Source of the DNA: Candidatus Nomurabacteria bacterium
GTDB taxonomy: Bacteria; Patescibacteriota; Minisyncoccia; Phycocordibacterales; UBA5272
Reading direction: 5' to 3'
NCBI GenBank assembly: GCA_040376695.1
Contig: JBEIQD010000001.1
Span: 80,726 to 144,725 of the forward strand
DNA length: 64,000 nucleotides
A model generated the notes under the pieces. It did no database searches and was not told the DNA's origin. It worked only from the letters and a program-made list of their open reading frames with translations. Positions 12,487-53,817 of the stretch are shown here, piece after piece (positions within the stretch are counted from its first letter, which is position 1; each line of letters begins with the position of its first letter). A program made the translations under genes and the position numbers.

Positions 12487-13542
12487 CTATTCTTCTTCGA
12501 ATGTCGGTTTGTCTAGAAGTGTTGGTTCAATCCCTATCTCCTCTCCCGTTATTCGAAGCACATCTTTATCTAACTTCTTCAGTTCCTTGTACGCTGTATT
12601 GTAATGATTCACACTTGTCCCCAATGTCACTCCAAGCTTTCTCATATAATCCTCATACGCCGCTAAGTGGTTACCAAGCTCTTCAACTCGCTTTTGGATA
12701 TGTTTTGCGCTCTCCTCAATCTTGAACGCCTTAAAGCCAAATAACACAGATTGGAGGTATGCATAGAACGTGGTCGGAGAAACAATAATCACCTTCTTTT
12801 TATTGTAAGCGTATTCAATTAAATTTTGCGTGTTAACCGCTCCCTTTGAAACCTGATTAACAAGAAGATCATAGTAGATACCTTCTGCTGGAATAAACAT
12901 AAAAGCGAACGGAAGCGTTCCTTCTTCTGGTTTAATATACTTAGCTGTTTCATCAATTCGTTTCTGAATATCTTTTTTGAATTCATTTTGATAAAAGGCT
13001 GTGTCTTCCTCATCGATAGCATTCATAAGACGCTGGTAGTTATCAAGAGAATACTTCGCATCTACTGGAATAATCCCTTCTTTTGTATGAATAACCGCAT
13101 CCACCGCTTCACCACTTTTAAAGTAATACTGCATTTCATATTGACCTGGGGCGAGCATGTTGGAAAGGATGAGTTCAAGAGACGCTTCGCCTAAATTTCC
13201 TCGTTGCTTCTGATGGGTAAGTACCTTCTCAAGGTTTTGAAGTTGCTCAGTCATTGAGAATACTTGTTTATTTCCTTCTTTCACCTCTGTAAGCTCTCGG
13301 GTGATGTCGGTAATGAGACGGTTGGCTTCTGCTCCTTGACGATGAAGCACTTGATGAAGGTCTGAAGCTGATCGTTCTAGTTTATTTTCTACCGTGTTAC
13401 GTAAACGTTCTAATTGGTCTTGAAGAATGAGAAATGTCTGATCTTCAGTATCATTGTTCTTTGTAGAACCACGAAGTAAGATAATGACGAGCAGTACAGT
13501 GATAATTGTTCCAAAAATGGCGATAAGAATAGTAGGAGTCAT
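12487..13542 (-). CDS. rmuC: DNA recombination protein RmuC
   Basis: N-terminal TM, long coiled-coil, then QKQRGNLGEASLELILSNMLAPGQYEMQYYF...GIIPVDAKY, the RmuC (DUF195) signature region. Confidence 0.8.
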   Translation of the reverse strand: MTPTILIAIFGTIITVLLVIILLRGSTKNNDTEDQTFLILQDQLERLRNTVENKLERSASDLHQVLHRQGAEANRLITDITRELTEVKEGNKQVFSMTEQLQNLEKVLTHQKQRGNLGEASLELILSNMLAPGQYEMQYYFKSGEAVDAVIHTKEGIIPVDAKYSLDNYQRLMNAIDEEDTAFYQNEFKKDIQKRIDETAKYIKPEEGTLPFAFMFIPAEGIYYDLLVNQVSKGAVNTQNLIEYAYNKKKVIIVSPTTFYAYLQSVLFGFKAFKIEESAKHIQKRVEELGNHLAAYEDYMRKLGVTLGTSVNHYNTAYKELKKLDKDVLRITGEEIGIEPTLLDKPTFEEE

Positions 13543-14044: not shown

Positions 14045-14491
14045 ATGCAAGAACAAATTAAAGCAGCAATAAAACCAGCGATGATAGCAAAAGATACGGT
14101 GCGCCTCGGCACACTTCGTATGCTTCTCGCTGCATTTACTAATGAACTCGTGACACAGGGACGTCCACCAACAGACCCTCTTTCTGATGAGGATTGTATG
14201 AAGGTTATTAAGCGTCTCGCTAAGCAGCGAAAGGATTCAATCGAACAGTTCGTTTCAGGTGGACGTGAAGATTTAGCAATTGATGAGAAAGCTGAACTTT
14301 CGATCATTGAGGAACTTCTTCCTGCACAAATGACAGAAGAAGAGGTTGAAACTCGTATTAAAGCAAAGCTTGCAGAGTCTCCACTTGACCCTACAAAGAA
14401 AGGGCAGTTTGTTGGAACAATGATGAAGGAGCTTGGTGATACAGCAGACGGCGCAATGGTAAAAGCTGTTATCGATAGACTAACTGCGTAA
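14045..14491 (+). CDS. GatB/YqeY-domain protein
   Basis: Resembles the YqeY/GatB C-terminal domain family throughout (IKAAIKPAMIAKDTVRLGTLRML..., LSDEDCMKVIKRLAKQRKDSIEQF). Confidence 0.8.
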   Translation: MQEQIKAAIKPAMIAKDTVRLGTLRMLLAAFTNELVTQGRPPTDPLSDEDCMKVIKRLAKQRKDSIEQFVSGGREDLAIDEKAELSIIEELLPAQMTEEEVETRIKAKLAESPLDPTKKGQFVGTMMKELGDTADGAMVKAVIDRLTA

Positions 14492-33297: not shown

Positions 33298-34032
33298 ATG
33301 AAAAGATCTACTATGATTATTTCGGCTATTGTTGCAGTGATTGTCATCGGCTTAATTGCTTGGACATTTACTCGTGATGCCGACGTTGTTGTGCCTATTG
33401 AAAATGGTACAGCAACAACAACTCCGACTGAAGGAGGAAACACTACAGGTGGAAATACTTCTACAGGTGGTACAGCAAACTCAACATCAGGACTTGGCGA
33501 GACATATGCAAATGCAACTCATGGATTTACTATTAGTTACCCACGAGAACTTACTACTGAGAACTTCGGAGTATTCCATGCACTCAATAACAATGACTGG
33601 CGTATTGGTGCAACAGCCGCAAAGCGCGGAACTCCTGTTATAGCAATCCCTGTTATTAAAATTGATAACACAGGATCTACAAAGAAGAACTACCCCCTCT
33701 TTTTCGCAGCTGAAGTTCGTGTCGGTGTAAGTACTGACGTAGCTCAGTGTTATGCAAAAGACGACGGATACACATCTCAGACAGTTACAGACGTAACAAT
33801 CAACGGTGTGGCGTTCAAGAAGTTTGTTTTCGCAGATGCAGCTATGCAACAGTACCTAAACGGTGCTAGTTACCGAACAATCAGAAACAATAAGTGTTAT
33901 GTTATCGAACAGATTCGAAATGGATCAAGTTACCGAGACGAAACGCTTGTTGGAGGTTACACTGATGTTGATCTAGATACTTTCTACGCACGAACGACAC
34001 CAATTGTGATGTCATTCAAGTTTAGTAAGTAA
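33298..34032 (+). CDS. hypothetical secreted protein
   Basis: Signal anchor, Thr/Gly-rich linker, 244 aa. Confidence 0.45.
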   Translation: MKRSTMIISAIVAVIVIGLIAWTFTRDADVVVPIENGTATTTPTEGGNTTGGNTSTGGTANSTSGLGETYANATHGFTISYPRELTTENFGVFHALNNNDWRIGATAAKRGTPVIAIPVIKIDNTGSTKKNYPLFFAAEVRVGVSTDVAQCYAKDDGYTSQTVTDVTINGVAFKKFVFADAAMQQYLNGASYRTIRNNKCYVIEQIRNGSSYRDETLVGGYTDVDLDTFYARTTPIVMSFKFSK

Positions 34033-34054
34033 TTTCTTCACTACTCAGATAAAA

Positions 34055-34088
34055 TAAAACCACCCGTTTGGGTGGTTTTATTTTATCT
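34055..34088. terminator. bidirectional intrinsic terminator, identical to the 30027-30059 module
   Basis: aaaaccacccgtttgggtggttttattttatc. Confidence 0.65.
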
Positions 34089-34090
34089 TT

Positions 34091-35164
34091 CTATAGCTGC
34101 TTTTCTTTCACTTCTACGCTTTTACCTGTTTCAATGTAGAATCGTATACGTCCAACGATACGATTATCATCTACCTTTACGGTAATTCTCCACATGCCAG
34201 GTGTTACATTTTCTTTTTGTGAGTAAGCTCTGTAGCCATTATCTCGCCCTCCCGTTAGATCAAATGAGATTGTTGTTGAAGGTATCCATTTCTCTGTAGT
34301 TTTATCATAATATTCCCATACGTGAGTAATTGGTGCAGAAAGCTTTGCAGGGGCGCCCACCGAACTAAAGAAATAGACGCCAGCATCAGCATCGGTCATA
34401 TGATACACAGGGCGCCGATATTTGCCCAAAAAACGCGTATCAGTCTCAACTAGTCCAATATATTCCCCCGTTTCGGTGCGCGTTACTTTGTGATAGATAC
34501 CACTGTCTTTTAAAGAAAGAGGGACAGCTGGGATTACATTTAGTATGTAGAGCATTCCCACAAACATAGGAATTCCTATCGCAAGAGCAAAGCCTCTTCC
34601 ACGCTCATCTTCTGCAACTTCAGAGGTTTTACGGAGTAATGTTATGAAGAGAAAACCGACAACGGTAGCAATTGCAATTGCTATGAGGAAGACAACATCA
34701 TTTACTTTATTGAAAACGATAGGAACATTGAAAATTGAATAGAACACAAGTGCAATGAAGAAGACGGCAATGTCTAAAGTAAATCGATACTGGTGAGTTG
34801 AAATAAATTCATTCGCCACCATACACAATAAAAGAATAACGAAGAGTGGCCAAGAAACGATAAAAGCTGCACTTCTCATTGCATATACGAACACAAAGGA
34901 AAGCGCTGAACCTGAGAAAAAGGAAACACCGAATGTGAGAAGTGAAAATAATCGCTGCTCAGCAGTACTTGCTGTATTTCTAGATACAACCCATTCACGG
35001 AATAAAATAATCGCAGCTAAAATAAGAAGGTATGAAAGGCCTAGATACTTTGTCATTGGATTATCAACATCCGGGAGAAGGAAAGCATCCGTGATAAACC
35101 CAGCAAGAAAAACAATAGTACTTGCATGTTTCCACCCTTGAGAAAGAATAGCTTGTAGTGCCAT
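34091..35164 (-). CDS. polytopic membrane protein with C-terminal DUF2914-like beta domain (hypothetical)
   Basis: About 8 TM helices, then ...YRRPVYHMTDADAGVYFFSS...WRITVKVDDNRIVGRIRFYIE. Start set at internal M (MALQAILS) to avoid overlap with the divergent cyt-b5 gene. Confidence 0.45.
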   Translation of the reverse strand: MALQAILSQGWKHASTIVFLAGFITDAFLLPDVDNPMTKYLGLSYLLILAAIILFREWVVSRNTASTAEQRLFSLLTFGVSFFSGSALSFVFVYAMRSAAFIVSWPLFVILLLCMVANEFISTHQYRFTLDIAVFFIALVFYSIFNVPIVFNKVNDVVFLIAIAIATVVGFLFITLLRKTSEVAEDERGRGFALAIGIPMFVGMLYILNVIPAVPLSLKDSGIYHKVTRTETGEYIGLVETDTRFLGKYRRPVYHMTDADAGVYFFSSVGAPAKLSAPITHVWEYYDKTTEKWIPSTTISFDLTGGRDNGYRAYSQKENVTPGMWRITVKVDDNRIVGRIRFYIETGKSVEVKEKQL

Positions 35165-35215
35165 GATGTTAGCAGTGTAACATTTAGGTGCTCTATCTTG
35201 TATACTAAAGCACAT

Positions 35216-35620
35216 ATGAAAAAAACATCTATTATAGTACTTTCGTTACTCGGGCTTATTGTTATTGGTGGAATTGTGTGGGCTTATTCAAATTACAAAG
35301 CTTACGCCCCAACTACATACATAGTAGAGACTGAAACTGGAACAACAACTATTGATACGACAACTAAGACTGAAACCCCTGGATCTCCGACATACACCAT
35401 GACAGATGTGGCTGCGCATAACAATGCAACAAGTTGCTACACGGTGATAAGTGGCAAGGTATACGATCTTACTATGTGGGTTGCTATGCACCCTGGAGGA
35501 AAGACTGCAATTCTTTCATTGTGTGGAGTGGATGGTACAGAAAGATTTAACAAAAAGCACGGATCGGATTCAAAACCAAATACTACACTTACTCGTTTTA
35601 AGATTGGCGTACTCAACTAA
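35216..35620 (+). CDS. membrane-anchored cytochrome b5-like heme-binding domain protein
   Basis: YTMTDVAAHNNATSCYTVISGKVYDLTMWVAMHPGGKTAILSLCG: cyt-b5 fold with HPGG heme-ligand motif. N-terminal TM. Confidence 0.7.
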   Translation: MKKTSIIVLSLLGLIVIGGIVWAYSNYKAYAPTTYIVETETGTTTIDTTTKTETPGSPTYTMTDVAAHNNATSCYTVISGKVYDLTMWVAMHPGGKTAILSLCGVDGTERFNKKHGSDSKPNTTLTRFKIGVLN

Positions 35621-35629
35621 TTCATTTTT

Positions 35630-36058
35630 ATGAGCGATATTCTTTTACCTCTTCACCTGATTACATTAGGTTTCATTTTTTGGACGATTATTCACGCTGA
35701 TCATCTTGCTTTTAATTGGATACGTGGAAAAGTCGCCACTCTTCCAAAAGAAAAAGTACAAAAATACCATCGCAATACTTGGATGGGGCTCGGTGGAATG
35801 ATTCTTACTGGTTTTCTTTTGTTCTGGCCTATGCGTGAGTTCTTACTTGGCCGACCGCAGTTCTACGCAAAAATGGCTTTTGTTGTAACCCTCGTCGCTA
35901 ACGGATTTGTTATCGGACATTTACAGAAGATCGCACTCCTCAAATCATTTAAGCAGTTAACTTTCAAAGAAAAAATACCACTCTTCATTTCTGGTGGTGT
36001 TTCAACACTTGCCTGGATTGGCGCTGCTCTCGGTGGCCTTTTCCTGATTCCTGATTAA
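35630..36058 (+). CDS. hypothetical membrane protein, co-transcribed with the cyt b5-like gene
   Basis: 142 aa, 4 TM, with several conserved-looking His (HADH, YHRN, IGHLQK). No family recognised. Confidence 0.45.
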   Translation: MSDILLPLHLITLGFIFWTIIHADHLAFNWIRGKVATLPKEKVQKYHRNTWMGLGGMILTGFLLFWPMREFLLGRPQFYAKMAFVVTLVANGFVIGHLQKIALLKSFKQLTFKEKIPLFISGGVSTLAWIGAALGGLFLIPD

Positions 36059-37050
36059 AGCTCTATTTGTTCTAGTAAAATTGCCTCAAAGGCCGTCCAA
36101 GCATGCGCATCTGATACTTCGAGAAGGCGGCGCTTTTCAAGGAGCCCTAAGATCAATTTTGAGCCTAGAATGAGAGGGAATTCATTCGCAAGTTTTGCTA
36201 TCTCTTTATTTTCTACATCTTCACCAACGCGAGAAAGTAGACCTTGTCTGATTAATTCAATCAGATCGTCATAGGTTCGAATAGCGTTCTTGTCTCTGGC
36301 GGACGTCAGAAGATTTACAATACTTTTTGGGTTTTTCTTGCACATCGCTTCCACAAGAGAAACCAGTAGTTCTGCTTCTGATGAACCCAACATAGCGCGA
36401 ACTTTTTCGTGATCTATTTTCTTATCTGACACAGCAAGAATCTGTTCAAGTATTCCAAGTGCGTCACGGTACGACCCTTTCCCGTGAATGGCGACAAGTC
36501 CTGCAGAATCAGTGTGTAGTACAAAACCTTCCTGTTGAGCTACGTGAGTAAGCTGCTGAGATAAAATTTCGTTTGTCGGATTTTTAAAGACCACTTTCTG
36601 ACAACGGGAAACAATAGTTGCTGGAAGTTTTTCTGGATCAGTTGTGGCAAGAATGAAAACAACATGACTTGGTGGCTCCTCAAGTGTTTTAAGTAATGCA
36701 TTGGACGCTTCTTTTGTAAGCATGTGTGCCTCATCAATAATATATATTTTATATTTACTAGAAAAAGGTGCCGTTCTAACAGCTTCACGAAGCTCACGTA
36801 TTTCATCGATACCACGATTACTTGCAGCGTCTATTTCAACAATATCTTCGGGGTTACATCCAATTTCTCTCGCAACGATTCTCGCCACACTTGTCTTCCC
36901 CGTCCCTCTTCCTCCACAAAAAAGGTACGCATGAGAGATTTTATTTTGCTTGATTGAGTTAACAAGAAGATCAACTACTTGCTCTTGTCCAACAACATCT
37001 TTAAATGTATGAGGGCGATATTTACGATACAGAGCTACGTAAGATGTCAT
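36055..37050 (-). CDS. dnaX: DNA polymerase III subunit gamma/tau, short form (AAA+ clamp-loader domains I-III only)
   Basis: YRKYRPHTFKDVVGQEQVV...HAYLFCGGRGTGKTSVARIVA (Walker A), IYIIDEAHML (Walker B), TLEEPP, SRCQ (sensor). Confidence 0.75.
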   Translation of the reverse strand: MTSYVALYRKYRPHTFKDVVGQEQVVDLLVNSIKQNKISHAYLFCGGRGTGKTSVARIVAREIGCNPEDIVEIDAASNRGIDEIRELREAVRTAPFSSKYKIYIIDEAHMLTKEASNALLKTLEEPPSHVVFILATTDPEKLPATIVSRCQKVVFKNPTNEILSQQLTHVAQQEGFVLHTDSAGLVAIHGKGSYRDALGILEQILAVSDKKIDHEKVRAMLGSSEAELLVSLVEAMCKKNPKSIVNLLTSARDKNAIRTYDDLIELIRQGLLSRVGEDVENKEIAKLANEFPLILGSKLILGLLEKRRLLEVSDAHAWTAFEAILLEQIEL

Positions 37051-37055
37051 ATGCT

Positions 37056-38150
37056 CTACAGTGTAACAGATTGTGTACGTGATAAAAACATGTGTATTTT
37101 TTCTTCAATTTCGGCTGCATTTTTGCAGTCCATAAGCTCCATTCGTAGTTCTTTAGCGCCATCAAAACCATGCACATAGGCTTTATAATGTTTTTTCATA
37201 ATAGCGAAACTCTTAATATCCCCTAGTTTTTCTTCGTAAAGCTTTGTGTGCTCTACGCAAATCTTGAGGCGTTCTTCAAGTGATTTACCTTGATTGAACT
37301 CCTTCTCATCAAAAAACCACGGCGTTCCAAAAATTCCTCGTCCCACCATTACCCCGTTTGCTCCAGATTCTTTCGCTTTTTCTTTTCCTTCAGTTACTGA
37401 TTTAATGTCTCCGTTTCCTAAAATAACAGTTCCGCCTTCAGATAATTCACCAGTTATGTCTCTTACAAGTTTAACGACGTCTTTCATGACATCCCAATGA
37501 GCGTCCACGAGAGACATTTCTTTTCGTGTCCTAAGATGAACGGTGAGTGCTGGAATATTGCATTCAAGAATCTTTGGTAACCACTCCATATATTCAATTT
37601 TGTTATATCCGAGACGTGTTTTTACGGATACAGGAAGATGTTCCGCTCCTTCCTGTGCTGCACGGATAATCGCTTGCGCTGTCTTCCAATCTTTAATATG
37701 CGCCGCTCCAGCACCTTGTTTTTCAATACTCTTATCTGGACAACCCATATTAATATCAATTCCATCAAAGCCAAGTTCACGACAAAGAGCTGCTGATTTC
37801 TTCATGTTTTCCGGGGTTGAGGTAAACAATTGTGCAACAACAGGACGTTCGATGTCAGTAATTTCAAGATCACGTTTTAAAATTTCCCTTCCAGGGCTGT
37901 TTAAACCATCTGCAGATACGAATTCTGTCCACATAACATCAGGGCCGTGTGGTTTCGAATACTTAGCAATCATTGTTCTAAAGGCGATATCTGTTACATC
38001 TGCCATGGGAGCAACAACTGAAAGAGTTTCTCCCTGAGAAAGTTTTGTGTCGATAAGTATTTGCCAAAATCCTCGTGTGGGGCTTTGTTGTATACGTCGA
38101 ATCGCAGATAGACCAAATAGTTTATTGAGTTGTGGTGGTAGCCATTTCAT
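37056..38150 (-). CDS. dus: tRNA-dihydrouridine synthase
   Basis: VAPMADVTD...GFDGIDINMGCP (catalytic Cys)...VSVKTRLG: Dus TIM-barrel motifs. Confidence 0.85.
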   Translation of the reverse strand: MKWLPPQLNKLFGLSAIRRIQQSPTRGFWQILIDTKLSQGETLSVVAPMADVTDIAFRTMIAKYSKPHGPDVMWTEFVSADGLNSPGREILKRDLEITDIERPVVAQLFTSTPENMKKSAALCRELGFDGIDINMGCPDKSIEKQGAGAAHIKDWKTAQAIIRAAQEGAEHLPVSVKTRLGYNKIEYMEWLPKILECNIPALTVHLRTRKEMSLVDAHWDVMKDVVKLVRDITGELSEGGTVILGNGDIKSVTEGKEKAKESGANGVMVGRGIFGTPWFFDEKEFNQGKSLEERLKICVEHTKLYEEKLGDIKSFAIMKKHYKAYVHGFDGAKELRMELMDCKNAAEIEEKIHMFLSRTQSVTL

Positions 38151-38922
38151 GTGGAGGGATTATAACGGGAACTGAAGCGTTTGTAAATTTATAAAAAACC
38201 TTATTTCCAAAACGGGTATCTATGTATTCCAGGAGCTCTGATTTTTCAAGAATCTTTTTCTTCAATGGATCAGTGTCTATGGCACTTAATATATTCGACC
38301 ACACACGATTCATATCAGCATCTGAAGATACAACTACATTTGTTTTCTTTGATTCATCAAAAAACCTAATGTCATTAAATTCATCAATTGTTATATAGCG
38401 AACTTTAAAGAGCACGGTATCTATATTAGATGCCAATGTTTCCATGGAACGTAAAAGATTCTGAGAAACTTCCGTTGAGGTTGATATTGATAATTGAGCA
38501 AATGTATCAAGTGGTACTATTTCTTTATATACAACTCCGTTCTCTGAAATGGCGTGCGTCTCACTCACTGCAAATATAGGAGTGTATGATTGAATCTTAA
38601 CAGTAAGTGTATGTAAACCGCTTGGGTACAGAATGATATCACTAGTGTTCGGAAGAGTTTCTGTTATAAGTGTACGTATCTCGTTATCGTGGTAACTAAG
38701 CACTCGATTTCCAGGAAGTATTTTCATTACTTTCTGATCTGCGAGAAATCCAAACTGTCTTTTTAATTCTGTGGCCTGTTCCTCTGTTGTTCCAGATATA
38801 TGGTAATCATGGATAGTGAACGTTCCTGTTCGGAAATATACGTATATTGCCCCAATACAACAAATAAGTATTGTAGATCTGATCACTAATCTCTTTAAAA
38901 GAACATATGTCCTTTTTCTCAT
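38122..38922 (-). CDS. hypothetical membrane-anchored protein (possibly an FtsQ/DivIB-like POTRA protein)
   Basis: N-terminal TM, then an alpha/beta region. Sits in an operon with serS/dus/dnaX. Assignment weak. Confidence 0.35.
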   Translation of the reverse strand: MRKRTYVLLKRLVIRSTILICCIGAIYVYFRTGTFTIHDYHISGTTEEQATELKRQFGFLADQKVMKILPGNRVLSYHDNEIRTLITETLPNTSDIILYPSGLHTLTVKIQSYTPIFAVSETHAISENGVVYKEIVPLDTFAQLSISTSTEVSQNLLRSMETLASNIDTVLFKVRYITIDEFNDIRFFDESKKTNVVVSSDADMNRVWSNILSAIDTDPLKKKILEKSELLEYIDTRFGNKVFYKFTNASVPVIIPPHEMATTTTQ

Positions 38923-38925
38923 AAA

Positions 38926-40200
38926 CTAATTACGAAAGGGTTTACCGATAACTGTTTTACCTCCCATAAACGGTACCAACACATCAGGAACCTTAATTGT
39001 TCCGTCTGCCTGCTGATAATTTTCAATAATTACAGTTACAAGACGAGGTGTAGCTGCAGCGGTGTTGTTAAGTGAATGAGCGTAGCGAAGTTTCCCTTCA
39101 GTGTCTTTGTAACGAATATTAAGTCGACGAGTTTGGAAATCATGGAAATAACTTGCTGAATGAGTTTCTCTGTACTTGCTCTGTGACGGCATCCAAGCTT
39201 CAATGTCATACTTCTTCACTTGTCCGAGTCCAAGATCTCCTCCGCAATTAATAACTGTATGGTACGGGAGATTAAGTTCTTCCATCATAGATTCAGCAAG
39301 TGTTCTGATTTCTTCATGCAAAGCAACCGATGTCTCGTGGCTAGCTTCACAGAGAATAACTTGTTCACATTTATAAAACTCATGAACACGCACCAGACCG
39401 TTAACATCTTTTCCGTGGCTTCCTGCTTCTTTTCTGAAACACGGACTCCATACAATATATTTCTTAGGTTCAGCTAATCCATCAAGTATCTCATCTGAGT
39501 GATAAAACATTGTTGCAACCTCCCCTGTTCCTGCTAAATAATCATTTCCATCTTTATAGAGATCATCCTCTCCCTGTGGAAGATAGCCTGTTCCTAGGAG
39601 AGTCTCACGCTTAACAAGAGATGGCACAAGCATAGGAGTGAACCCTTTCCCTTGCCAACGTTGCATTACATAATTCCAAATAGCCATTTCAAGCATCGCC
39701 CCGTCATTTTTCAAGAAGTATCCTCTGAAGCCTGATGTCTTTGTTCCACGTTCAAAATCAACAAGGTCACTTTGTACCATGAGTTCAATATGATCAAGCG
39801 GAGTAAAAGAAAAATCTTTAATTTCCCCCCATGTTTTTACTTCCACATTATCTTCGTCTGACTTTCCTTCTGGAACTGTCATGTCTGGAATGTTTGGAAC
39901 AGACAACATAAGCGTTCTCCAAGTCTTCATTACCTCCTCAAGCTCATCTTCTTGTGTTTTAAGTTCATCCTTTACCTTCTTCATGGCATCAATAAGTTCC
40001 TGGCGGGTGTGAGCGTCTGCCTTTGAAATAGCCTCGCTGGCAGCGTTTTGTTCAGCTCGGAGACTTTCAACTACTTTCAAGATTTCAAGGCGTTTTGTAT
40101 CTGAAGCAATAAGATCGTCAACATTAAATGACAAGTGTTTTTTAGAAGCGGCGGCACGAATAAGGTCACTTTGTTCACGGATGAATTTAATGTCTAACAT
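38926..40200 (-). CDS. serS: serine--tRNA ligase
   Basis: N-terminal coiled-coil arm. Class II motifs ...FRKEAGSHGKDVNGLVRVHEF... and ...TAAATPRLVTVIIENYQ. Confidence 0.9.
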   Translation of the reverse strand: MLDIKFIREQSDLIRAAASKKHLSFNVDDLIASDTKRLEILKVVESLRAEQNAASEAISKADAHTRQELIDAMKKVKDELKTQEDELEEVMKTWRTLMLSVPNIPDMTVPEGKSDEDNVEVKTWGEIKDFSFTPLDHIELMVQSDLVDFERGTKTSGFRGYFLKNDGAMLEMAIWNYVMQRWQGKGFTPMLVPSLVKRETLLGTGYLPQGEDDLYKDGNDYLAGTGEVATMFYHSDEILDGLAEPKKYIVWSPCFRKEAGSHGKDVNGLVRVHEFYKCEQVILCEASHETSVALHEEIRTLAESMMEELNLPYHTVINCGGDLGLGQVKKYDIEAWMPSQSKYRETHSASYFHDFQTRRLNIRYKDTEGKLRYAHSLNNTAAATPRLVTVIIENYQQADGTIKVPDVLVPFMGGKTVIGKPFRN

Positions 40201-40238
40201 GTCCTTTATTCTAACAGATAGTAGCTCCTTTATGAAGC

Positions 40239-40970
40239 TTGTTTATAAGGATATCTAGGAAAACAGATTTACAGGATATACTGGTCATAATGACAGAGCG
40301 AGACACCTTAGAGGAAGATATTAAGAGCTCCACGCCTCATATCGTTACCCACCAGGAAAAGTATAGTAAACACCCTAAAGGATTTTCAGATTTTATAGCA
40401 AAATCAACCGTACACCTCTCAGCAGGTATAGCCGATTTTTTATTCCAAGAGCGCTATTGTCACCGCGCTGTAGTTCTGGAAACGGTTGCGGCTGTTCCAG
40501 GTATGGTAGGAGGACTTCTTCAACATTTAAAATCGTTACGCTTCATACGGGATGACCGCGGATGGATTCACACCCTCTTAGCTGAAGCAGAAAATGAGCG
40601 AATGCATCTACTGATTTATAGCGAGATAGCAAAACCCTCTACGTTAGAAAGAATTCTTATTATGGTGGTTCAGTTTTTCTTTTATCATTTGTATTTTCTC
40701 CTGTATCTTATCAGTGCGAAAACAGCTCATCGTGTTGTTGGATACTTTGAGGAAGAAGCAATTCATAGCTATAAACACTATCTACAACTGGTAGAAGAAG
40801 GTAAACACGAAAACATACCAGCTCCAATAAGTGCTATTACGTATTGGGAACTTCCTGAAGATGCACGTCTTATGGATGTCATCAAAGCAACCATCAAGGA
40901 TGAAATGTACCACCGAGACACCAACCATGCCTTTGCTGACGATGTTGCAGGAACAAAACTCTGGAGTTAG
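40239..40970 (+). CDS. aox: alternative oxidase (AOX; di-iron carboxylate ubiquinol oxidase family)
   Basis: HRAVVLETVAAVPGMVGGLLQHLKSLR...GWIHTLLAEAENERMHLL...YLISAKTAHRVVGYFEEEAIHSY...DEMYHRDTNHAFAD: all four AOX iron-ligand motifs (LET, NERMHL, EEEA.H, DE..HRD.NH). Confidence 0.8.
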   Translation: MFIRISRKTDLQDILVIMTERDTLEEDIKSSTPHIVTHQEKYSKHPKGFSDFIAKSTVHLSAGIADFLFQERYCHRAVVLETVAAVPGMVGGLLQHLKSLRFIRDDRGWIHTLLAEAENERMHLLIYSEIAKPSTLERILIMVVQFFFYHLYFLLYLISAKTAHRVVGYFEEEAIHSYKHYLQLVEEGKHENIPAPISAITYWELPEDARLMDVIKATIKDEMYHRDTNHAFADDVAGTKLWS

Positions 40971-40971
40971 A

Positions 40972-41010
40972 AACAAAAATCACCATCGAAAGATGGTGAT
41001 TACTTTGTTT
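40972..41010. terminator. bidirectional intrinsic terminator aatcaccatc-gaaa-gatggtgatt
   Basis: 10-bp stem with flanking A/T tracts. Confidence 0.6.
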
Positions 41011-41018
41011 CTCTAAGA

Positions 41019-41177
41019 CTAGAGAGCTGCTGGAGTAACTTCTGCGGCTACAACTTCTTCTTCCGCTACTGGTGTAGTTTCAGTTGATTCTGTAGGAATT
41101 GCAGTTTCCTCAACTACTGGAGTGTCTGTTGCTGGAACTTCTTCAGTAATAGGAGTTGTGATGATTTCGTCTGACAT
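41019..41177 (-). CDS. 52-aa acidic Thr/Glu/Pro/Val-rich low-complexity peptide (doubtful)
   Basis: MSDEIITTPITEEVPATDTPVVEETAIPTESTETTPVAEEEVVAAEVTPAAL. No RBS seen. May be non-coding. Confidence 0.15.
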   Translation of the reverse strand: MSDEIITTPITEEVPATDTPVVEETAIPTESTETTPVAEEEVVAAEVTPAAL

Positions 41178-41254
41178 AGATTTGTTTTGAAAATGGGTAA
41201 AGTCGAGCGCGTATCATAGCACTTCTAGGACTCTAAAGCAATTAGAGCTCTAAG

Positions 41255-42307
41255 CTAGAACGCCTGATTGATGAGCAAACAAAGTGTGATTACAAGCAAT
41301 AGCGCGAGTCCGTACGTTATATGTTTCCAGTGCTGTTTTCGAATCTCAATAAAAATCATAGTAAGTAAAGCAACAAACGTTAGTGCAAGTAACCCCTTTA
41401 AAAGGATATCTACATAATAAGAGCCACCAAACAGCAGACGCCCGTACCACGTTGAGTATTTTTCAGGAGCACTTGGCGTAGAAGTGCTTACAGCAACTTC
41501 CTCTGCTTCATTGTTTCTAACAACAGCTAACTCTTCAGTCGTAATAACTGATTCATATTCAGGCTTTGTTTCTACTGATTCACCTTTAATTTCAGGCGTA
41601 CCGACAGCTAGAACAGGATTGGTTTGAGGAGTTATAGTTTCTATTGGTGCCACTTTTTGTGGTTCAAGGGTTTCTTTTTCAACACTAGGAGAAGTCTCTA
41701 CGACAGGAATTTCTTTTGCTACTGCTGGAGTACCGAACATTTGCACTACATAAATTGTTGGGCCATTCTTATATACACCACTTACTGTTGCCATACCAAT
41801 TTCCTTAAACTTTACATCCAAAAGATTGGCTCTGTGCAGCGGAGAAGCGAGCCATGCATTACGAACCTCTTCAGCATCTACGAAATTGATAGCAAGATTT
41901 TCTCCTGCATATAAAAACGTGTACCCAGCTTGCTTGAACCAGTGCCATGGAGTTACTCCTTCTGGACTATCATGTGCAAAATATCCCTCCTTAGCCATAT
42001 CTTCGGCTTTAAGGGTTGCTGCGCGATCTAAAACGGGATTGCGCACAAGAGGAGCTTCATTGTACGCCAGACGACTTTCGTTAGTTAAATCAACAAGAAC
42101 AGAAGCGGTAACGCTTGCCCCTAGTACTGTTTTCTTAATAAGGAATGAGCTGCCTGCAGAAAAACCAAGAAGGAAAATACTTCCAATAACAATAATTGCA
42201 ACTGAGACTTCTCGGAAAAAGTGTGGCTTGTAATCATTGTGCTCGTGCGGAATGAATACATGCTTTAAAAAGGAGTGGGGTTTCACTTGTACAGTATAAC
42301 GTAGCAC
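41255..42307 (-). CDS. CAP/SCP (PR-1-like, YkwD-type) domain protein with N- and C-terminal membrane anchors
   Basis: LDRAATLKAEDMAKEGYFAHDSPEGVTPWHWF...YAGENLAINFVDAEEVRNAWLASPLHRANLL: CAP domain motifs. Confidence 0.8.
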   Translation of the reverse strand: MLRYTVQVKPHSFLKHVFIPHEHNDYKPHFFREVSVAIIVIGSIFLLGFSAGSSFLIKKTVLGASVTASVLVDLTNESRLAYNEAPLVRNPVLDRAATLKAEDMAKEGYFAHDSPEGVTPWHWFKQAGYTFLYAGENLAINFVDAEEVRNAWLASPLHRANLLDVKFKEIGMATVSGVYKNGPTIYVVQMFGTPAVAKEIPVVETSPSVEKETLEPQKVAPIETITPQTNPVLAVGTPEIKGESVETKPEYESVITTEELAVVRNNEAEEVAVSTSTPSAPEKYSTWYGRLLFGGSYYVDILLKGLLALTFVALLTMIFIEIRKQHWKHITYGLALLLVITLCLLINQAF

Positions 42308-48543: not shown

Positions 48544-49089
48544 TTATCTTTTAGATACTCGAAAGATAAACCTGTAATCAGACTCAGAAATAGTTTTCTT
48601 AGATTCTCGTTCTGGACGTACAGCAACAAGCGTAATTGCTTCTGTTTCTGTCGTAATAGTTCCACCAAGTGCAATTGTTTCAGTAGCTGTGCCCATACCG
48701 CTTTCAATCTTTATCTTAACTTTTACAGTTCCTGCCTGGATACACTGCACATCTATCGGACAACGACTATCTTCTACAATTGATAGCACGGTAATCTTTT
48801 CCGCCACTGGAATAATTTGTATATTTAATTTTGCCTCAATAGTTACAGCGTCCTTTGGTGTAGACGTTGAGGTTGGAATTGGGCATACAAATTGACAATT
48901 AGGTCCAGATCTCCCTACCCATGATCCATCAGAGCACTGTTTAGCATCCATAGTACACATCACTTCTCCTGTAGGTTCACCTTTTACAACTGAAGAAGCT
49001 TTTTGTGAAAAGTTCCAAGCTCCGTATGCAAGAAGAGCTAACACTGCCACACCTATAATTGCTAACACTATGTTTTTATTTGAGTTCAT
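48544..49089 (-). CDS. hypothetical secreted protein
   Basis: Signal peptide, Cys-containing, 181 aa. Confidence 0.4.
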   Translation of the reverse strand: MNSNKNIVLAIIGVAVLALLAYGAWNFSQKASSVVKGEPTGEVMCTMDAKQCSDGSWVGRSGPNCQFVCPIPTSTSTPKDAVTIEAKLNIQIIPVAEKITVLSIVEDSRCPIDVQCIQAGTVKVKIKIESGMGTATETIALGGTITTETEAITLVAVRPERESKKTISESDYRFIFRVSKR

Positions 49090-49776: not shown

Positions 49777-50373
49777 TTACACCGCATTTGAGACATTTGT
49801 TAAAAGAAGCGCCATAGTAAGATCCCCAAGAAGCAGGAAAACAGCAAATTGCCGATATGAATATCCACTCACCGCAAGTAGGGCGAGAATAATATCATTT
49901 GGGAATGGAGCAAAAGCGGTGTATGAAAAAATCATTACATACACAATCCAACTCGGCGTGACGTACAGCCATTTCCAAATTTTTCTAAACACATGCTCCC
50001 ATTTTTTTGTAATATCCACCAATATGTGTCGTACTTTTGTTATAACAAAATAAAATAATGAGTCACTTATAAAAAGACCAATTCCTCCTATTACACCTAG
50101 AACAAGTGGATTAACCCCGCCGTGCGCCAAAGCAACAAGAGCGGCATACAGCGATGTTCCCGTGATAGAAGAAAAACCTCCTATAACAGCCAACATAAAT
50201 GCTGCGAAATATGTATTCTCTATTCCAATGTCATTCACCAATTCATCTACGGGATAAAAATGAAAGAATAGTGCCCATCCAATCAAAACAAGAAGAACAA
50301 GAGCGATAACGCCATAGAATTTTTTCTTTTTATCCAGCTTGTACATGTCTATACTGACGCCAGCGAAAGACAA
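49777..50373 (-). CDS. hypothetical polytopic membrane protein
   Basis: 198 aa, 5-6 TM. Confidence 0.4.
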   Translation of the reverse strand: MSFAGVSIDMYKLDKKKKFYGVIALVLLVLIGWALFFHFYPVDELVNDIGIENTYFAAFMLAVIGGFSSITGTSLYAALVALAHGGVNPLVLGVIGGIGLFISDSLFYFVITKVRHILVDITKKWEHVFRKIWKWLYVTPSWIVYVMIFSYTAFAPFPNDIILALLAVSGYSYRQFAVFLLLGDLTMALLLTNVSNAV

Positions 50374-50376: not shown

Positions 50377-50883
50377 TTACAGAGATGATTTTTCTGCTGC
50401 TTCAATTTTTCTATTTTCAGCTGTCCAACCAATCATGTTCACAAGTATCTGCACTGCAGTAGCAACTCCTGAAATCGCGAGAATAAGAATTGGTAGCCAT
50501 AGTAACTCAGTTGCGATAAAGTACCCGTAGGTTACAAAAAGCGCAGCCCAAATGCTGAAACACCAAGGACAGATGAGAAGCTCATATGCAGTACGTAGCG
50601 GACCACTGGTTCGTTCTACTTTTGTGAAGTACGTAATTCCTTCCTGAGAATAACTTTCTTCTGCATGCTGAAACATGTCACGCAAGAATCGAGTTATCTT
50701 GTCATATACAAATAGTCGAGTAAGGCGAAATGTAGCAAGCACAATAAGAATAAGATCAAACAAAGGAATAGCTGTGGGTAATTGTCCGTTTACACGATGA
50801 AGCGAATAAATCATTCCAACTGCAACAACTAAAAAGAACCCCGAGAACATAACATTCCAAAAATTTTGATCATCTTTTTTCAT
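50377..50883 (-). CDS. DUF1360-family membrane protein
   Basis: LFDLILIVLATFRLTRLFVYDKITRFLR...LICPWCFSIWAAL matches the DUF1360 pattern. Confidence 0.6.
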   Translation of the reverse strand: MKKDDQNFWNVMFSGFFLVVAVGMIYSLHRVNGQLPTAIPLFDLILIVLATFRLTRLFVYDKITRFLRDMFQHAEESYSQEGITYFTKVERTSGPLRTAYELLICPWCFSIWAALFVTYGYFIATELLWLPILILAISGVATAVQILVNMIGWTAENRKIEAAEKSSL

Positions 50884-50938: not shown

Positions 50939-52063
50939 TTATCTATTTTCTTCATTTCGCTTCTCTTTCAAAGCTTCCAAAACTGAATGAACTTTCTGCA
51001 GTGCTACAATCCGAGCTTTACGCTCATGTTTAACCACATACATAGCGGTATCGGCGCGCTTAATCAGATCACCATAATCCTGCAAAGCAAGATCAATTTC
51101 AGACTGAACATCAACCCCACTTACAATGCCTGATAGTTCCGTAACCACAATTTCGTCCTTGGTTTTTTCAGGTACAGCTCTTAAGTCTTCTGACTCAAGA
51201 ACAGCAACACCTAAAGAAGCTGACGGAACAATAGTTACCCCTTCTGCGGGAGTAAACACTACCTTGCTAAGGAAAAGTTCAATCCTAGAAGCAATCTCAA
51301 AAGCCTCTTTTTCCGTTGTTTCAGGCAGCACCACAATAAACTCATCCCCTAAGCGAACGATGAAGTCTACTGTACGTATAGCGTGACGGATTGCTTTTTC
51401 AATTTTGCCTAACAGGATATCAGCCACAGGGTGCCCGAAGTTGGTGTTAACAAGCTTGAAACCATCCAGGTCTGCAAAGATACACGCTGTGGGAGTTTTG
51501 TGTCTTTTGGCACGATTCCACACGGGAACCCACAAATTATTCCCACCTCGACGTGTATGTGCGTCAGTAATGGTGTCAGTGTCTGTTTCTTCCATTCCTC
51601 TCAATCTTCGTTCGGCTCCTGCGATGTGCTCAATAAATAATCCAGTCAGGTTGTAATGATTTTTTGTAGCTTCTGCTTTCTTAACAGGGGCTCCTTTTTT
51701 CGCTTTTTTAACCCCTTTTCCTTTCGTGAAATAAGTAGCGCCCATGCGGACAGCTCGTGTAAGTAAGCAGTGATCGTTGTCAGCAGTAACCAACATAAAC
51801 TCAATTGGAAACCGTGTAATTTCCTTTAGCTCAACTATCAGCTGCAGCCCAGTGATTTTTGGTAAATACTGTTCAACGAGGAAGATCGCTGGGCCCAACA
51901 AATCATTAACAATATCTCTTGCCTCACGTTGTGAACTTGCTATCAGTACAGCATATCCTTCACTTTCAATGAGTGGTTTTGCTAACTGCAGGTAGTCGTC
52001 ATTGGTATCAACCAGGACGACTGTGGGTTTGACCCACTTCCTCATCCTTGTCGACATAATCAT
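50939..52063 (-). CDS. response-regulator-like protein: pseudo-receiver (Asp to Glu at phospho-acceptor) plus degenerate GGDEF domain retaining the RxxD I-site
   Basis: REC: VVLVDTNDD...PAIFLVEQYLP (E where D54 is expected), ...FMLVTADND...YFTKG. GGDEF region: ...FADLDGFKLVNTNFGHPVADILL...RTVDFIVRLGDEF-IVVLP (RYGGDEF reduced to RLGDEF; RTVD matches RxxD). Confidence 0.7.
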   Translation of the reverse strand: MIMSTRMRKWVKPTVVLVDTNDDYLQLAKPLIESEGYAVLIASSQREARDIVNDLLGPAIFLVEQYLPKITGLQLIVELKEITRFPIEFMLVTADNDHCLLTRAVRMGATYFTKGKGVKKAKKGAPVKKAEATKNHYNLTGLFIEHIAGAERRLRGMEETDTDTITDAHTRRGGNNLWVPVWNRAKRHKTPTACIFADLDGFKLVNTNFGHPVADILLGKIEKAIRHAIRTVDFIVRLGDEFIVVLPETTEKEAFEIASRIELFLSKVVFTPAEGVTIVPSASLGVAVLESEDLRAVPEKTKDEIVVTELSGIVSGVDVQSEIDLALQDYGDLIKRADTAMYVVKHERKARIVALQKVHSVLEALKEKRNEENR

Positions 52064-52156
52064 GACGTACTCCTTTGATGTGTATGAAATTCAATGAACA
52101 GCGTATGACCCATTTCTACAACAAAATAGCGCTAATGTCAATCATTGCTACTATGC

Positions 52157-52957
52157 CTACACTTGTAGAGCCGGATTATTTACAAAATAGTTACACCACT
52201 CTTTATATTCTTTACTTGGAAGCGCATGAGTGAAATAAAATCCTTGTACCACTTGGCACTCCATTTCTTTTAGTAATGCAAGCTGCTCTTCTGTTTCAAC
52301 CCCTTCTGCCACAATATCAATATCAAGCGCTCGAGCAAGGAGAATAATCGAATACATAATCTTCGTGTCTCGCTCGCTCTTCAAACTTTGCTGAATAAAC
52401 TGCCCATCAATCTTAAGTCCGTCCACAGGAAACTGTCGTAGATGGCTTAAATTCGCAAATCCTGCACCGAAGTCATCAATAATAATCCGCACACCAAGTT
52501 CTTTTAGTTCTAAAAGTGTTTTCCTTGTTGCTTCTGGGTCGTCCAGCGCCATGCTTTCAGTAATCTCAAGCTCCAAATCATGTGGATCTAAACCCGACTC
52601 AACCAACACGTGTGCAACCTTCTTTGAAAAATCTCTGTCCGTTAATTGCACAAGTGAAAGGTTCACCGTCACCTTGAAAAAGGCATACCCTTCATCTTTC
52701 CATTTCTTACTCTGCATACAGCTTTCACGCAAAACAAAATAACCGAGCTGGACAATTGCTCCTGTTTTTTCTGCAGTTGTTATAAAACTATTTGGATGAA
52801 GAAGCCCCAACTGCGGATGATTCCACCGCACGAGCGCTTCGCCTGAAATAATTGTATTCTTTTCTTTGTCTATAATTGGTTGGTAATAGACTTCAAATTG
52901 TCTCAACTCTACAGCTTGTAATATATCTTTCTTAGAAAAAGTATCTTTTGACTTCAT
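52157..52957 (-). CDS. EAL-domain c-di-GMP phosphodiesterase
   Basis: YYQPII...EALVRW..., ELEITES, DDFGAGFANLSHL, GLKIDGQFIQ, IVAEGVETEEQ: full complement of EAL catalytic motifs. Confidence 0.85.
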   Translation of the reverse strand: MKSKDTFSKKDILQAVELRQFEVYYQPIIDKEKNTIISGEALVRWNHPQLGLLHPNSFITTAEKTGAIVQLGYFVLRESCMQSKKWKDEGYAFFKVTVNLSLVQLTDRDFSKKVAHVLVESGLDPHDLELEITESMALDDPEATRKTLLELKELGVRIIIDDFGAGFANLSHLRQFPVDGLKIDGQFIQQSLKSERDTKIMYSIILLARALDIDIVAEGVETEEQLALLKEMECQVVQGFYFTHALPSKEYKEWCNYFVNNPALQV

Positions 52958-53082: not shown

Positions 53083-53817
53083 TTAAATAATATCCTTGTG
53101 CAAAAGAGCATCCTCTTTTGGGTGAGTTCTATTATCTCGAGTAAAGCTTTTCTTAAAGTGCTGCCAAAAGACCCCTCTGTGTTCAATTATTTCAAATACA
53201 AGGACAATACCCAAAGCAAGCACCGCTCCCACAGCAGCAACCGCAAGGTCTTTAGTGGTATCGAACGGATCATTTCCTCCAATAAATAAATATCCCGCCG
53301 CTTCACCATACTGAAGCACAGTCACCCATTCGAATACTTCATAGAGCGCACCAAGTGCAAGAATCATACTAAATGGCATACTGTATGCCCAAAATCCTTT
53401 CATCTTTGCTATACGGAGACAGAGTTCTCGCAATGGATACACAATAAGAAAGCCAAATGAAAAGTGAACCAACTTATCATACATGTTGCCGCCGAGACCA
53501 GAAACTTCACTTAAGGTGAACCCAAATGGTACTGACCCGTAGTTATAGTGCGCCCCCATCAGATGAAGAATAAAGAATAGAGTAATAAGAGATAGTGAAA
53601 GTTTTGAAAAGCGAATATAGCGAATTAGTAAAAGGTAAATAATAGGAATAAACAAAAGCACCATCTTATTTTCTAAAAACCAATTAGTAGGACTTGCAGG
53701 GTCCCATACTGACCACGCCCATACACCTAAAAATAACGTGAGCAAAAAGTGCACATAGTACTTACCAACATATACAGATACCTCTTTCATATTTCTTATA
53801 GACGAATTAGAAACCAC
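53083..53817 (-). CDS. YjdF/DUF2238-like membrane protein
   Basis: ...NMYDKLVHFSFGFLIVYPL...YEVFEWVTVL... motifs and 6 TM, as I recall for DUF2238. Confidence 0.45.
   Translation of the reverse strand: MVSNSSIRNMKEVSVYVGKYYVHFLLTLFLGVWAWSVWDPASPTNWFLENKMVLLFIPIIYLLLIRYIRFSKLSLSLITLFFILHLMGAHYNYGSVPFGFTLSEVSGLGGNMYDKLVHFSFGFLIVYPLRELCLRIAKMKGFWAYSMPFSMILALGALYEVFEWVTVLQYGEAAGYLFIGGNDPFDTTKDLAVAAVGAVLALGIVLVFEIIEHRGVFWQHFKKSFTRDNRTHPKEDALLHKDII

Follow-up and report, generated by a model that had tools for sequence, protein, structure and literature searches.

On the minus strand of a 64,000-nucleotide stretch of contig JBEIQD010000001.1 (assembly GCA_040376695.1, positions 80,726 to 144,725; hereafter, the window), two adjacent genes encode a very small cyclic di-guanosine monophosphate (c-di-GMP) module, composed of a stand-alone EAL protein of 266 residues and of a 374-residue protein in which a receiver (REC) domain is connected to a GGDEF domain. 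The host is a bacterium of the Paceibacterota (Patescibacteria/candidate phyla radiation, CPR), and both open reading frames (ORFs) lie where the preliminary description of this locus had placed them (Table 1). Our favoured but tentative reading, to which a probability of about 0.45 can be assigned, is that the REC-GGDEF protein acts as a non-catalytic nucleotide sensor working with a partner, most plausibly the co-transcribed EAL protein. This reading is suggested by the loss of one residue from the motif of the GGDEF domain that is most sensitive to mutation, by a structural model in which the hairpin is re-registered and D240 lies in the turn, by an invariant inhibitory-site (I-site) triad combined with a dead, Glu-type receiver, and by the linkage of EAL and REC-GGDEF genes in nine locus groups, no terminator being found between the two genes. 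Moreover, the fast evolution of the protein and its gain of an insertion and of a C-terminal helix fit a change of role.

Domain organization of the REC-GGDEF protein

By fold and sequence, the protein belongs to the WspR/DgcR/PleD type of Rec-GGDEF proteins. Its GGDEF domain is recognized by Pfam (PF00990, E = 2.1e-26; 93 bits against a cut-off of 23.8) and by TIGR00254 (8.6e-28), and its receiver by Response_reg (PF00072, 1.5e-8), with a score of 35.2 bits that is slightly above the cut-off of 30.2. Among NCBIfam models, that of the PleD family scores highest, with 102 bits, which is far under the 474-bit equivalog cut-off. An AlphaFold model built on 26 family sequences (predicted local distance difference test score, pLDDT, of 86) places in this order the REC domain, a disordered Lys-rich linker, the stalk helix, the GGDEF domain and one long C-terminal helix. 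The model retrieves WspR (E 1.5e-19), DgcR (5e-19) and PleD as top Foldseek matches, and its GGDEF domain superimposes on that of DosC with a template-modelling (TM) score of 0.85 and a root-mean-square deviation of 2.0 Å. The modelled receiver is made of five strands alternating with four helices, the fifth helix being unresolved, and its matches in the PDB are CpxR and Spo0F, at about 1e-5. Among orthologs the linker is rich in insertions and deletions, and the stalk follows the WspR/DgcR layout.

Three further features, absent from the preliminary description, characterize the protein. The first is the replacement of the canonical DxLTGLxNRR by DTITDAHTRRGG; NRR and GRN motifs are, in fact, missing from the alignment of the whole family. 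The second is an insertion, predicted to be mostly disordered (pLDDT below 50 at residues 304-315). The third is an extension of the C-terminal helix, whose motif A.Q.(L/V)HSVL.(A/S)LKEKR.EE is specific to the subclade carrying Glu at the acceptor position of the receiver (E64) and is tandemly duplicated in family members P0004 and P0005 and in the ortholog of locus L001 (L001 6250-6426). This motif could be a docking or coiled-coil element.

The GGDEF hairpin, the active site and the I-site

In the place of the intact GG(D/E)EF that marks an active diguanylate cyclase, the protein carries RLGDEF. Specifically, the segment FIVRL-GDEF aligns with a one-residue gap to YVFRYGGDEF of DosC, to RYGGEEF of PleD and to all canonical homologs. 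The spacing between RxxD and (D/E)EF is one residue less than in PleD, PleD R366 is the counterpart of the invariant Arg, and the next residue (L/Y/I/M/R/K/Q) varies as much as the x of RxGG; these features rule out an xGDEF substitution and identify a true deletion. In the model, the strands spanning residues 234-238 and 241-247 are connected by a two-residue turn formed by G239 and D240. The same Gly deletion was found in none of 77 GGDEF motifs from random metagenome loci and in none of 256 in other fetched proteins (333 in total).

The rest of the active site is largely in place. D198 (metal position), N206 (guanine ligand position), D215, R237, D240/E241 and K345 are present, and the equivalent of PleD R446 is K349; in other words, the protein has counterparts for PleD D327, N335, D344, R359-D362, R366, E370/E371, R390 and K442. 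In addition, the I-site is intact, as its RxxD is accompanied by R260 and R184, corresponding to PleD R390 and R313, respectively; R230, D233 and R260 are invariant in 26 of 26 family members. Both elements shared by degenerate GGDEF domains that act as receptors, namely RxxD and the partner Arg, are therefore found here.

Conservation was also evaluated within the clade of proteins that share the single-Gly hairpin, down to about 32-36% identity. Only 30 of the 374 columns are invariant, and they include seven of the ten canonical active-site positions (D198, N206, R237, G239, D240, E241 and K345; P about 1e-6) and three of the four I-site positions (P about 0.002-0.005). The invariance of the active-site residues across this clade suggests that nucleotide binding at the active site is still under selection.

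The receiver domain

E64, in the segment LVEQYLP (residues 62-68), aligns to the phospho-accepting Asp of CpxR, Spo0F and PhoP, to D53 of PleD and, in two unrelated REC-GGDEF homologs, to an Asp. The receiver keeps D19, T93 and K114, and T20 occupies the second Mg-binding acidic position, so that neither the acceptor Asp nor the complete acidic pair of a phosphorylatable receiver is present. Among aspartate-less receivers Glu is the commonest substitution (26%), acidic residue 1 and the Lys being usually kept and acidic residue 2 usually lost, and these receivers are enriched on GGDEF proteins (PMC4395418). With E64, D19 and K114, the receiver of the window can be regarded as an ordinary member of the Glu-type class, with no difference in kind from examples such as ChxR. 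As a consequence of the exchange of the acceptor Asp for Glu and of the loss of the second metal-binding Asp, a histidine kinase should not be able to switch the REC-GGDEF protein.

Most of these residue states had been proposed from the sequence in the preliminary description, which recognized a receiver and a GGDEF domain, RYGGDEF shortened to RLGDEF, a retained RxxD (RTVD) and an acceptor Asp replaced by Glu. The Pfam and PDB alignments and the model bear out this architecture, and the alignment to PleD, which it had suggested as a check, yields the one-residue deletion, the complete I-site and the Glu at the position of D53; neither an intact GG(D/E)EF nor an acceptor Asp was found in the protein of the window.

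Distribution of the family and order of events

The family is rare, with 33 matches to its profile at E<1e-30 among 1.84 billion representative proteins. E64, R(L/Y)GDEF, RTVD and the insertion are retained in each of seven close orthologs (70-77% identity), and this conservation indicates that the features are not due to chance. The single-Gly hairpin is also found at 32-47% identity in P0056, P0057, P0062, P0063, P0067 and P0075. Neighbour-joining analysis groups the 13 single-Gly proteins in a single clade (bootstrap 77%), which is nested among canonical RxGGDEF members of the family, and the Gly deletion apparently arose once.

The state of the receiver follows a different distribution. 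E64 is invariant in P0001-P0007, whereas Asp is found at this position in the deeper single-Gly proteins P0056, P0062, P0063, P0067 and P0075. Five of the six deeper members have the full Asp-Asp-Asp pocket, and P0057 has lost it in a different manner (H19/T20/A64). The Asp-to-Glu exchange and the loss of the neighbouring acidic residue came later than the Gly deletion, in the sublineage of the window. Glu at the acceptor position is also observed in P0059 and P0126, which have a canonical GGDEF motif, and in P0071 and P0112, in which the motif is near-canonical; the exchange must consequently have arisen more than once, independently of the Gly deletion.

Adjacent and co-oriented EAL and REC-GGDEF genes, in this order, occur in nine locus groups (window, L001, L007, L088-90, L093, L097, L098, L099/100 and L101) that cover 35-77% identity. 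In all eight groups that could be read that far, the next gene after REC-GGDEF encodes a DUF1360 protein, the contig of L093 being too short to identify it. Genes for VTT/DedA-like, DUF1360 and DUF2238 proteins stay beside the pair even where the flanks are rearranged, as in L088. The same order of EAL, REC-GGDEF and DUF1360 genes is found in L101, whose REC-GGDEF protein (P0061) has a canonical RYGGDEF and an Asp acceptor. Since this canonical protein sits at the same locus, the ancestor of the locus was probably an ordinary pair of a phosphodiesterase and a Rec-GGDEF cyclase.

Searches for additional copies gave negative results. An exact-sequence look-up of the REC-GGDEF protein matched no recorded contig, and its genomic context was therefore derived from the EAL protein and from orthologs. 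A scan of metagenome contigs with the alignment of the single-Gly clade returned only generic GGDEF genes (22-41% identity), the family being apparently missing from this collection, a search based on the canonical sister clade found no paralog on the source contig (316 kb) or on JAKFZB010000001.1 (614 kb) among 8000 candidates scored, and no further GGDEF gene appears in the gene tables of about 100 kb of related sequence and of the window.

As a separate observation, the REC-GGDEF ortholog at L091 10891-12023 (GCA_021733405.1, JAKFZB010000001.1) and that of L092 contain one frameshift directly after HTRRGG, the EAL gene and both REC-GGDEF halves being otherwise intact. The frameshifted copy is found in GCA_021733405.1 and SRR10388057, and a full-length sibling, P0055, belongs to the same 90% cluster. 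The frameshift in GCA_021733405.1 would represent either a recent inactivation or an assembly error.

The EAL protein and selection on the gene pair

The EAL protein is matched by Pfam EAL (PF00563) at E=2.2e-71, with 240 bits against a cut-off of 31.3 and over profile positions 3-234 of 236, and by the solved EAL domains of MorA (E 1.7e-56) and MucR (1.6e-55). Alignment to these two structures identifies E40-A-L-V-R44, N99 (VNLS), E129/E131/E134 (ELEITES), D161-D162 (IDDFG), K182 (LKID), E218/E221 (AEGVETEEQ) and Q238 (VQGFYF), in agreement with the earlier statement that every catalytic motif is there. The catalytic and metal residues E40, R44, N99, E131/E134, D161/D162, K182, E218 and Q238 are kept in eight orthologs, and the protein is thus predicted to be an active c-di-GMP phosphodiesterase. 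The sole deviation from the motif set concerns loop 6 (residues 160-169), which reads DDFGAGFAN in place of DDFGTGYSS. The former sequence is found in the window, L001 and L007, and DDFG(T/A)GYS(S/G) in deeper orthologs; in other words, the change from YSS to FAN falls in the same sublineage where the receiver of the partner lost its Asp.

Selection was estimated from the ratio (omega) of nonsynonymous (dN) to synonymous (dS) divergence between the window and L001 and between the window and L007. As dS is 1.3-1.6 and near saturation, omega values are approximate, whereas the ranking by dN is robust. The EAL gene, whose orthologs are 93-94% identical, has a dN of 0.04 and an omega of 0.03, and the genes for DUF2238, DUF1360, VTT and YflT proteins have values of 0.02-0.07 for both measures. 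For the whole REC-GGDEF gene, dN is 0.17-0.18 and omega 0.11-0.13; the GGDEF core is more constrained (dN 0.12-0.13, omega 0.06-0.08), and the insertion has the highest omega in the protein (0.2-0.4, with dN 0.16-0.31). In the E64 subclade, REC-GGDEF thus evolves 3-5 times faster than most of its neighbours, the exception being a 181-residue neighbour with a dN of 0.21 against L007 in one comparison. These values indicate that the REC-GGDEF protein is functional and under purifying selection, yet generally the fastest-changing member of the cassette.

The two genes also appear to be expressed as a unit. The terminator scan found no terminator in the 93-nucleotide gap that follows the EAL stop codon, and a strong terminator is located after REC-GGDEF; this arrangement looks like a two-gene operon, with the terminator as its end. 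The membership of the DUF1360 gene in the module is uncertain, because this gene sits beyond the terminator.

Sensor, cyclase or effector

According to the mechanism that we favour, the original pair would have been formed by a stand-alone EAL phosphodiesterase and a WspR/DgcR-type Rec-GGDEF cyclase. The loss of one Gly from the GG(D/E)EF hairpin, occurring once and common to a clade, would be the first step; later, in the sublineage of the window, the acceptor Asp would have become Glu and the second metal-binding Asp would have been lost. The resulting protein would most likely no longer make c-di-GMP at a useful rate and would operate as a constitutively dimeric sensor, binding c-di-GMP at the I-site (R230/D233/R260 together with R184) and probably still holding GTP/Mg in the half of the active site that is preserved. 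The signal would then be passed to the partner, most plausibly the EAL phosphodiesterase or, alternatively, the adjacent membrane protein; with the EAL phosphodiesterase as partner, the degenerate-GGDEF/EAL arrangement of PdeA and CdpA would be reproduced in trans. Degenerate GGDEF domains that serve as c-di-GMP receptors, or on which EAL activity depends, are described for PopA, PelD, CdgA, FimX, SgmT and CdpA (PMC3974145), and complexes between diguanylate cyclases and phosphodiesterases, as well as trigger phosphodiesterases, form the subject of PMC5052742.

Several observations weigh against a non-catalytic sensor. In the single-Gly clade the remaining active-site positions are conserved to the same degree as the I-site, and a pure I-site receptor is expected to let its active-site residues drift, as in PopA and PelD. 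The presence of the canonical P0061 at the same locus makes conserved function the simplest assumption. Furthermore, the very strong constraint on the EAL protein implies a source of its substrate, and no other GGDEF gene was found in the approximately 100 kb examined. Finally, VCA0965 (AGDEF) and ECA3270 (SGDEF) are active cyclases (PMC3974145), so that a non-canonical motif alone is no proof of lost activity. For this reason, the preliminary description of the protein as an effector and not a cyclase, although a reasonable hypothesis, is retained here only in part: the intact I-site, the contracted hairpin and the non-phosphorylatable receiver stand, whereas loss of cyclase function is not established by them.

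The main alternative, which we regard as a serious possibility although we would not expect it to hold, is a diguanylate cyclase that is still active and independent of any kinase. The RxGDEF hairpin would be tolerated, the Glu receiver would act as a permanent dimerization module, and the output would be restrained only by product inhibition through the I-site. Such an enzyme and the EAL phosphodiesterase would constitute a minimal make-and-break pair controlling the c-di-GMP level of a bacterium with a reduced genome. The invariance, over a deep divergence following the deletion, of all metal-, base- and phosphate-binding residues except the missing Gly argues for this possibility, as do the stable inheritance of the single-Gly state in one clade and the low omega values of both the GGDEF core and the EAL gene. 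The canonical ortholog at the same locus, beside the same EAL gene, points in the same direction, and so does the failure to find a second GGDEF gene in the fetched related loci. The first position of the motif is known to be plastic in VCA0965 and ECA3270 (PMC3974145), and the model suggests that D198 and E241 lie on strands whose pairing need not be disturbed by the deletion. However, changes in the GG(D/E)EF motif are in general poorly tolerated, and the loss of a residue is a harsher alteration than the known substitutions by Ala or Ser. At the position of PleD R446, the protein of the window has Lys, whereas of the six deeper single-Gly members P0056 retains Arg and the other five have Tyr; D215 is replaced by Asn in two single-Gly members and F242 by Ile or Met in two, and the NRR and GRN motifs are missing family-wide. 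The fast evolution and the new insertions in the sublineage of the window also speak against a maintained enzyme, and an acceptor Glu is no reliable mimic of activation (PMC4395418). A broader version of the same idea appears only slightly less probable: the whole RxGDEF clade of the Paceibacterota would be catalytically active, here kinase-free by virtue of the Glu receiver, and would form with one EAL protein a complete minimal c-di-GMP metabolism.

An effector of the PopA/PelD type, with an output unrelated to the EAL protein (for example, the DUF1360, DUF2238 and VTT membrane proteins or type IV pili) and with cyclases encoded elsewhere in the genome, appears improbable. Such a protein would account for the intact I-site, for the position of DUF1360 next downstream in eight of eight locus groups, even with rearranged flanks (L088), and for the presence of DUF2238 or VTT genes nearby in most loci, and the new C-terminal helix motif could serve it as a docking element. 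On the other hand, a strong terminator separates REC-GGDEF from DUF1360, and adjacency is weak evidence, since long-range synteny is conserved in these genomes anyway. Moreover, the conservation of the active site would be left unexplained, and neither a riboswitch nor a PilZ, MshEN or further GGDEF domain was seen locally.

The two remaining alternatives are far less credible. The idea of a cyclase gene decaying into a pseudogene after an inactivating deletion, to which the rank of the gene as the fastest-evolving of the cassette and the split ortholog of GCA_021733405.1 and SRR10388057 might point, is rejected on dN/dS: omega is 0.11-0.13 (0.06-0.08 in the core), at least 12 lineages have an uninterrupted reading frame, the deletion is old and the functional residues are invariant, and the frameshifted copy is about 90% identical over the REC half, with the second half in an intact frame and a full-length sibling (P0055). 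The least likely of all is an altered product specificity, such as that of a Hypr-type synthase of cyclic GMP-AMP or cyclic di-AMP. Hypr enzymes carry Ser or Thr at the position of PleD D344, which is Asp (D215) in the protein of the window, with a canonical N206, and the partner is a c-di-GMP-specific EAL enzyme; this reading is rejected in spite of an unusual active-site loop and of the Rec-GGDEF layout, which is typical of Hypr enzymes (PMC6456294).

The distinction matters because GGDEF proteins are routinely sorted into cyclases and degenerate receptors by their five-letter motif. The combination of a single-residue deletion, a long-conserved active site and a canonical ortholog at the locus as a control makes the protein of the window a good natural test of this rule. 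If the protein were active, motif-based censuses would undercount cyclases, and RxGDEF would represent a previously unrecognized variant of the diguanylate cyclase active site in an ultra-small symbiotic bacterium. If it were inactive, the locus would record a stepwise path from cyclase to sensor, with the Gly deletion first and the loss of phosphorylation second.

The locus and the remaining content of the window

Table 1. Positions, in window coordinates, of the c-di-GMP gene pair, of its functional elements and of other features of the window
Feature	Position	Strand	Basis
Stand-alone EAL phosphodiesterase gene, without sensor domain	52157..52957	-	ORF; Pfam EAL; MorA/MucR EAL alignments
EAL loop 6	52450-52478	-	Alignments
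Weak promoter-like TTGACA-17-TAGAAA in the EAL/REC-GGDEF gap	52141..52113	-	Read from sequence
Shine-Dalgarno AAGGAG, 6 nucleotides 5' of the REC-GGDEF ATG	52070..52075	-	Read from sequence
REC-stalk-GGDEF gene, second of the pair	50939..52063	-	ORF; Pfam GGDEF and Response_reg
Receiver, residues 14-117, Glu-type aspartate-less	51713..52024	-	CpxR/Spo0F/PhoP alignments
E64 codon, phospho-acceptor position (Asp in canonical receivers)	51872..51874	-	Alignments
Lys-rich variable linker (low model confidence) and conserved stalk helix YNLTGLFIEH..AE..L (model helix 141-161)	51584..51712	-	Ortholog alignment, model
GGDEF domain, residues 161-352	51008..51583	-	Pfam and PDB alignments; core omega
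I-site R230-T-V-D233 (RxxD)	51365..51376	-	Aligned to PleD R359-A-I-D362
R237-L-G239-D240-E241-F242, GG(D/E)EF hairpin one Gly short	51338..51355	-	PleD/DosC/canonical homolog alignments
R260 codon, I-site partner	51284-51286	-	Alignment to PleD
Lineage-specific insertion of 30-40 residues (about 293-328), after the SxGVA strand and before the last GGDEF helix	51080..51187	-	Alignments
C-terminal helix extension ALQKVHSVLEALKEKRNEENR	50942..51007	-	Model helix 319-373
Intrinsic terminator, GC-rich 9-base-pair stem and T8, overlapping the REC-GGDEF stop codon	50919..50940	-	Terminator scan
DUF1360 membrane protein, next downstream of REC-GGDEF	50377..50883	-	Pfam DUF1360 5.7e-23; synteny
VTT/DedA-like protein	49777-50373
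DUF2238 protein	53083-53817
181-residue neighbour	48544..49089
Small HD_4 protein	3791-4438	-	4.9e-17
RmuC	12487..13542	-
GC-rich island	13680-13950
YqeY-like ORF	14045..14491	+
Cytochrome b5-like protein	35198-35620	+
Alternative oxidase	40239-40970	+	Pfam AOX 3.6e-71

The remaining part of the window encodes housekeeping and envelope proteins, including L27, L9, L21, DnaB, CysRS, SerRS, RecR and Dus. At the 90% identity level, the L27 protein clusters with one from 'Candidatus Paceibacterota bacterium', and the closest genome match is a groundwater metagenome-assembled genome. A six-frame hidden Markov model (HMM) search finds one GGDEF, one EAL and one REC domain in the whole window, and this search together with a Pfam sweep of 70 further ORFs reveals no second copy of any of them and no histidine kinase, PilZ or HD-GYP domain, which agrees with the earlier remark that neither a canonical cyclase nor a histidine kinase is present. 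In particular, HisKA and HATPase_c are absent from the 70 further ORFs, the sole match to an H-box motif being due to chance, and no MshEN domain was seen in the Pfam sweep of the window ORFs. With regard to RNA elements, no c-di-GMP riboswitch or other element was detected in the whole window at the Rfam gathering threshold, nor around the operon at E<=1. NCBIfam searches with the neighbouring DUF1360, DUF2238, VTT, YflT and VF530 proteins gave nothing informative. As a result, the module consists of one EAL and one Rec-GGDEF protein in one apparent operon of a CPR genome, with no kinase in the window.

A few additional features deserve mention in their own right. The related locus L007 contains, at 12354-13493 on the minus strand and about 3 kb away from the orthologous module, a gene for a 379-residue protein whose sole recognizable domain is HAMP (8.2e-11), beside LytR_C and PilM/PilN genes; this protein was discarded, as it lacks a kinase domain and has no counterpart in the window. 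Another gene connected with nucleotide messengers in the window is a possible (p)ppGpp hydrolase, a small HD_4 protein of the RelA/SpoT-type, hydrolase-only kind. The alternative oxidase and the cytochrome b5-like protein suggest an oxygen-related function that is atypical for CPR, and the oxidase is likewise found in the related genome of L091. Between the RmuC gene and the YqeY-like ORF lies an island of about 270 nucleotides with 63-73% GC in a genome of 40% GC; it has no match in Rfam and its folding z-scores are just -0.7 and -0.9. On its plus strand, an AAGGAG ribosome-binding site is followed by a 58-residue ORF (MARTHSPPHKG...AAVTMH) and then by a GC-rich hairpin. Lastly, one ORF within 22694-42307 has a weak Pfam match to TrbC/VirB2 pilin (2.4e-5).

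Comparison with known systems

To our knowledge, second-messenger signalling in Patescibacteria/CPR is essentially unstudied. For c-di-GMP in CPR, PMC9938205 only counts annotated cyclase genes in metagenome-assembled genomes of ultra-small groundwater bacteria. In the literature searched, no description was found of a GG(D/E)EF motif that is shortened by one residue throughout a clade while the remainder of the site is conserved.

The EAL protein shares the full set of catalytic residues with the EAL domains of MorA, MucR, DosP and RocR and with single-domain enzymes similar to PdeH. It differs from MorA, MucR, DosP and RocR in having no sensor domain and, in its sublineage, in carrying GAGFAN instead of GTGYSS in loop 6. 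As for the REC-GGDEF protein, the same layout of REC, helical stalk and GGDEF, with RxxD and the partner Arg and with the metal and guanine residues, is found in WspR (Pseudomonas aeruginosa PA3702) and DgcR (Leptospira biflexa). In contrast with both of them, to which it is about 20% identical, the protein of the window has an acceptor Glu, T20, a shorter hairpin, no NRR or GRN motif, an insertion and the C-terminal helix. The reference cyclase with a Rec-Rec-GGDEF layout is PleD of Caulobacter, whose family gives the best NCBIfam match and whose residues served for the mapping given above; it has two receivers instead of one, one more Gly and no Glu at the acceptor position.

PopA of Caulobacter and PelD of Pseudomonas, two degenerate-GGDEF receptors in which the I-site binds c-di-GMP, had been proposed in the preliminary description as analogues. 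The likeness holds for the non-canonical active-site motif combined with a retained RxxD; it remains an analogy, as no specific sequence relationship was found, the closest relatives being WspR, DgcR and PleD. The active sites of PopA and PelD are broadly degenerate, whereas the protein of the window misses one Gly and keeps the other catalytic and substrate-binding residues, several of which are invariant. Moreover, PelD receives its input through transmembrane and GAF domains, and PopA carries two receivers that need not be phosphorylated.

A functional parallel may be offered by PdeA (CC3396) of Caulobacter and CdpA of Vibrio cholerae, in which a degenerate but nucleotide-competent GGDEF domain is tied to an EAL phosphodiesterase; PdeA is activated by GTP. 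The functional tie between the degenerate GGDEF and the EAL domain of CdpA is documented (PMC3974145). In these proteins a single chain carries the GGDEF domain followed by the EAL domain, whereas in the window the two domains are encoded by separate genes, with EAL first. The active cyclases VCA0965 and ECA3270, both altered at the first Gly of the motif and with RxxD kept (PMC3974145), provide the complementary comparison: there the change is a substitution, whereas the protein of the window has undergone a deletion that leaves a shorter hairpin.

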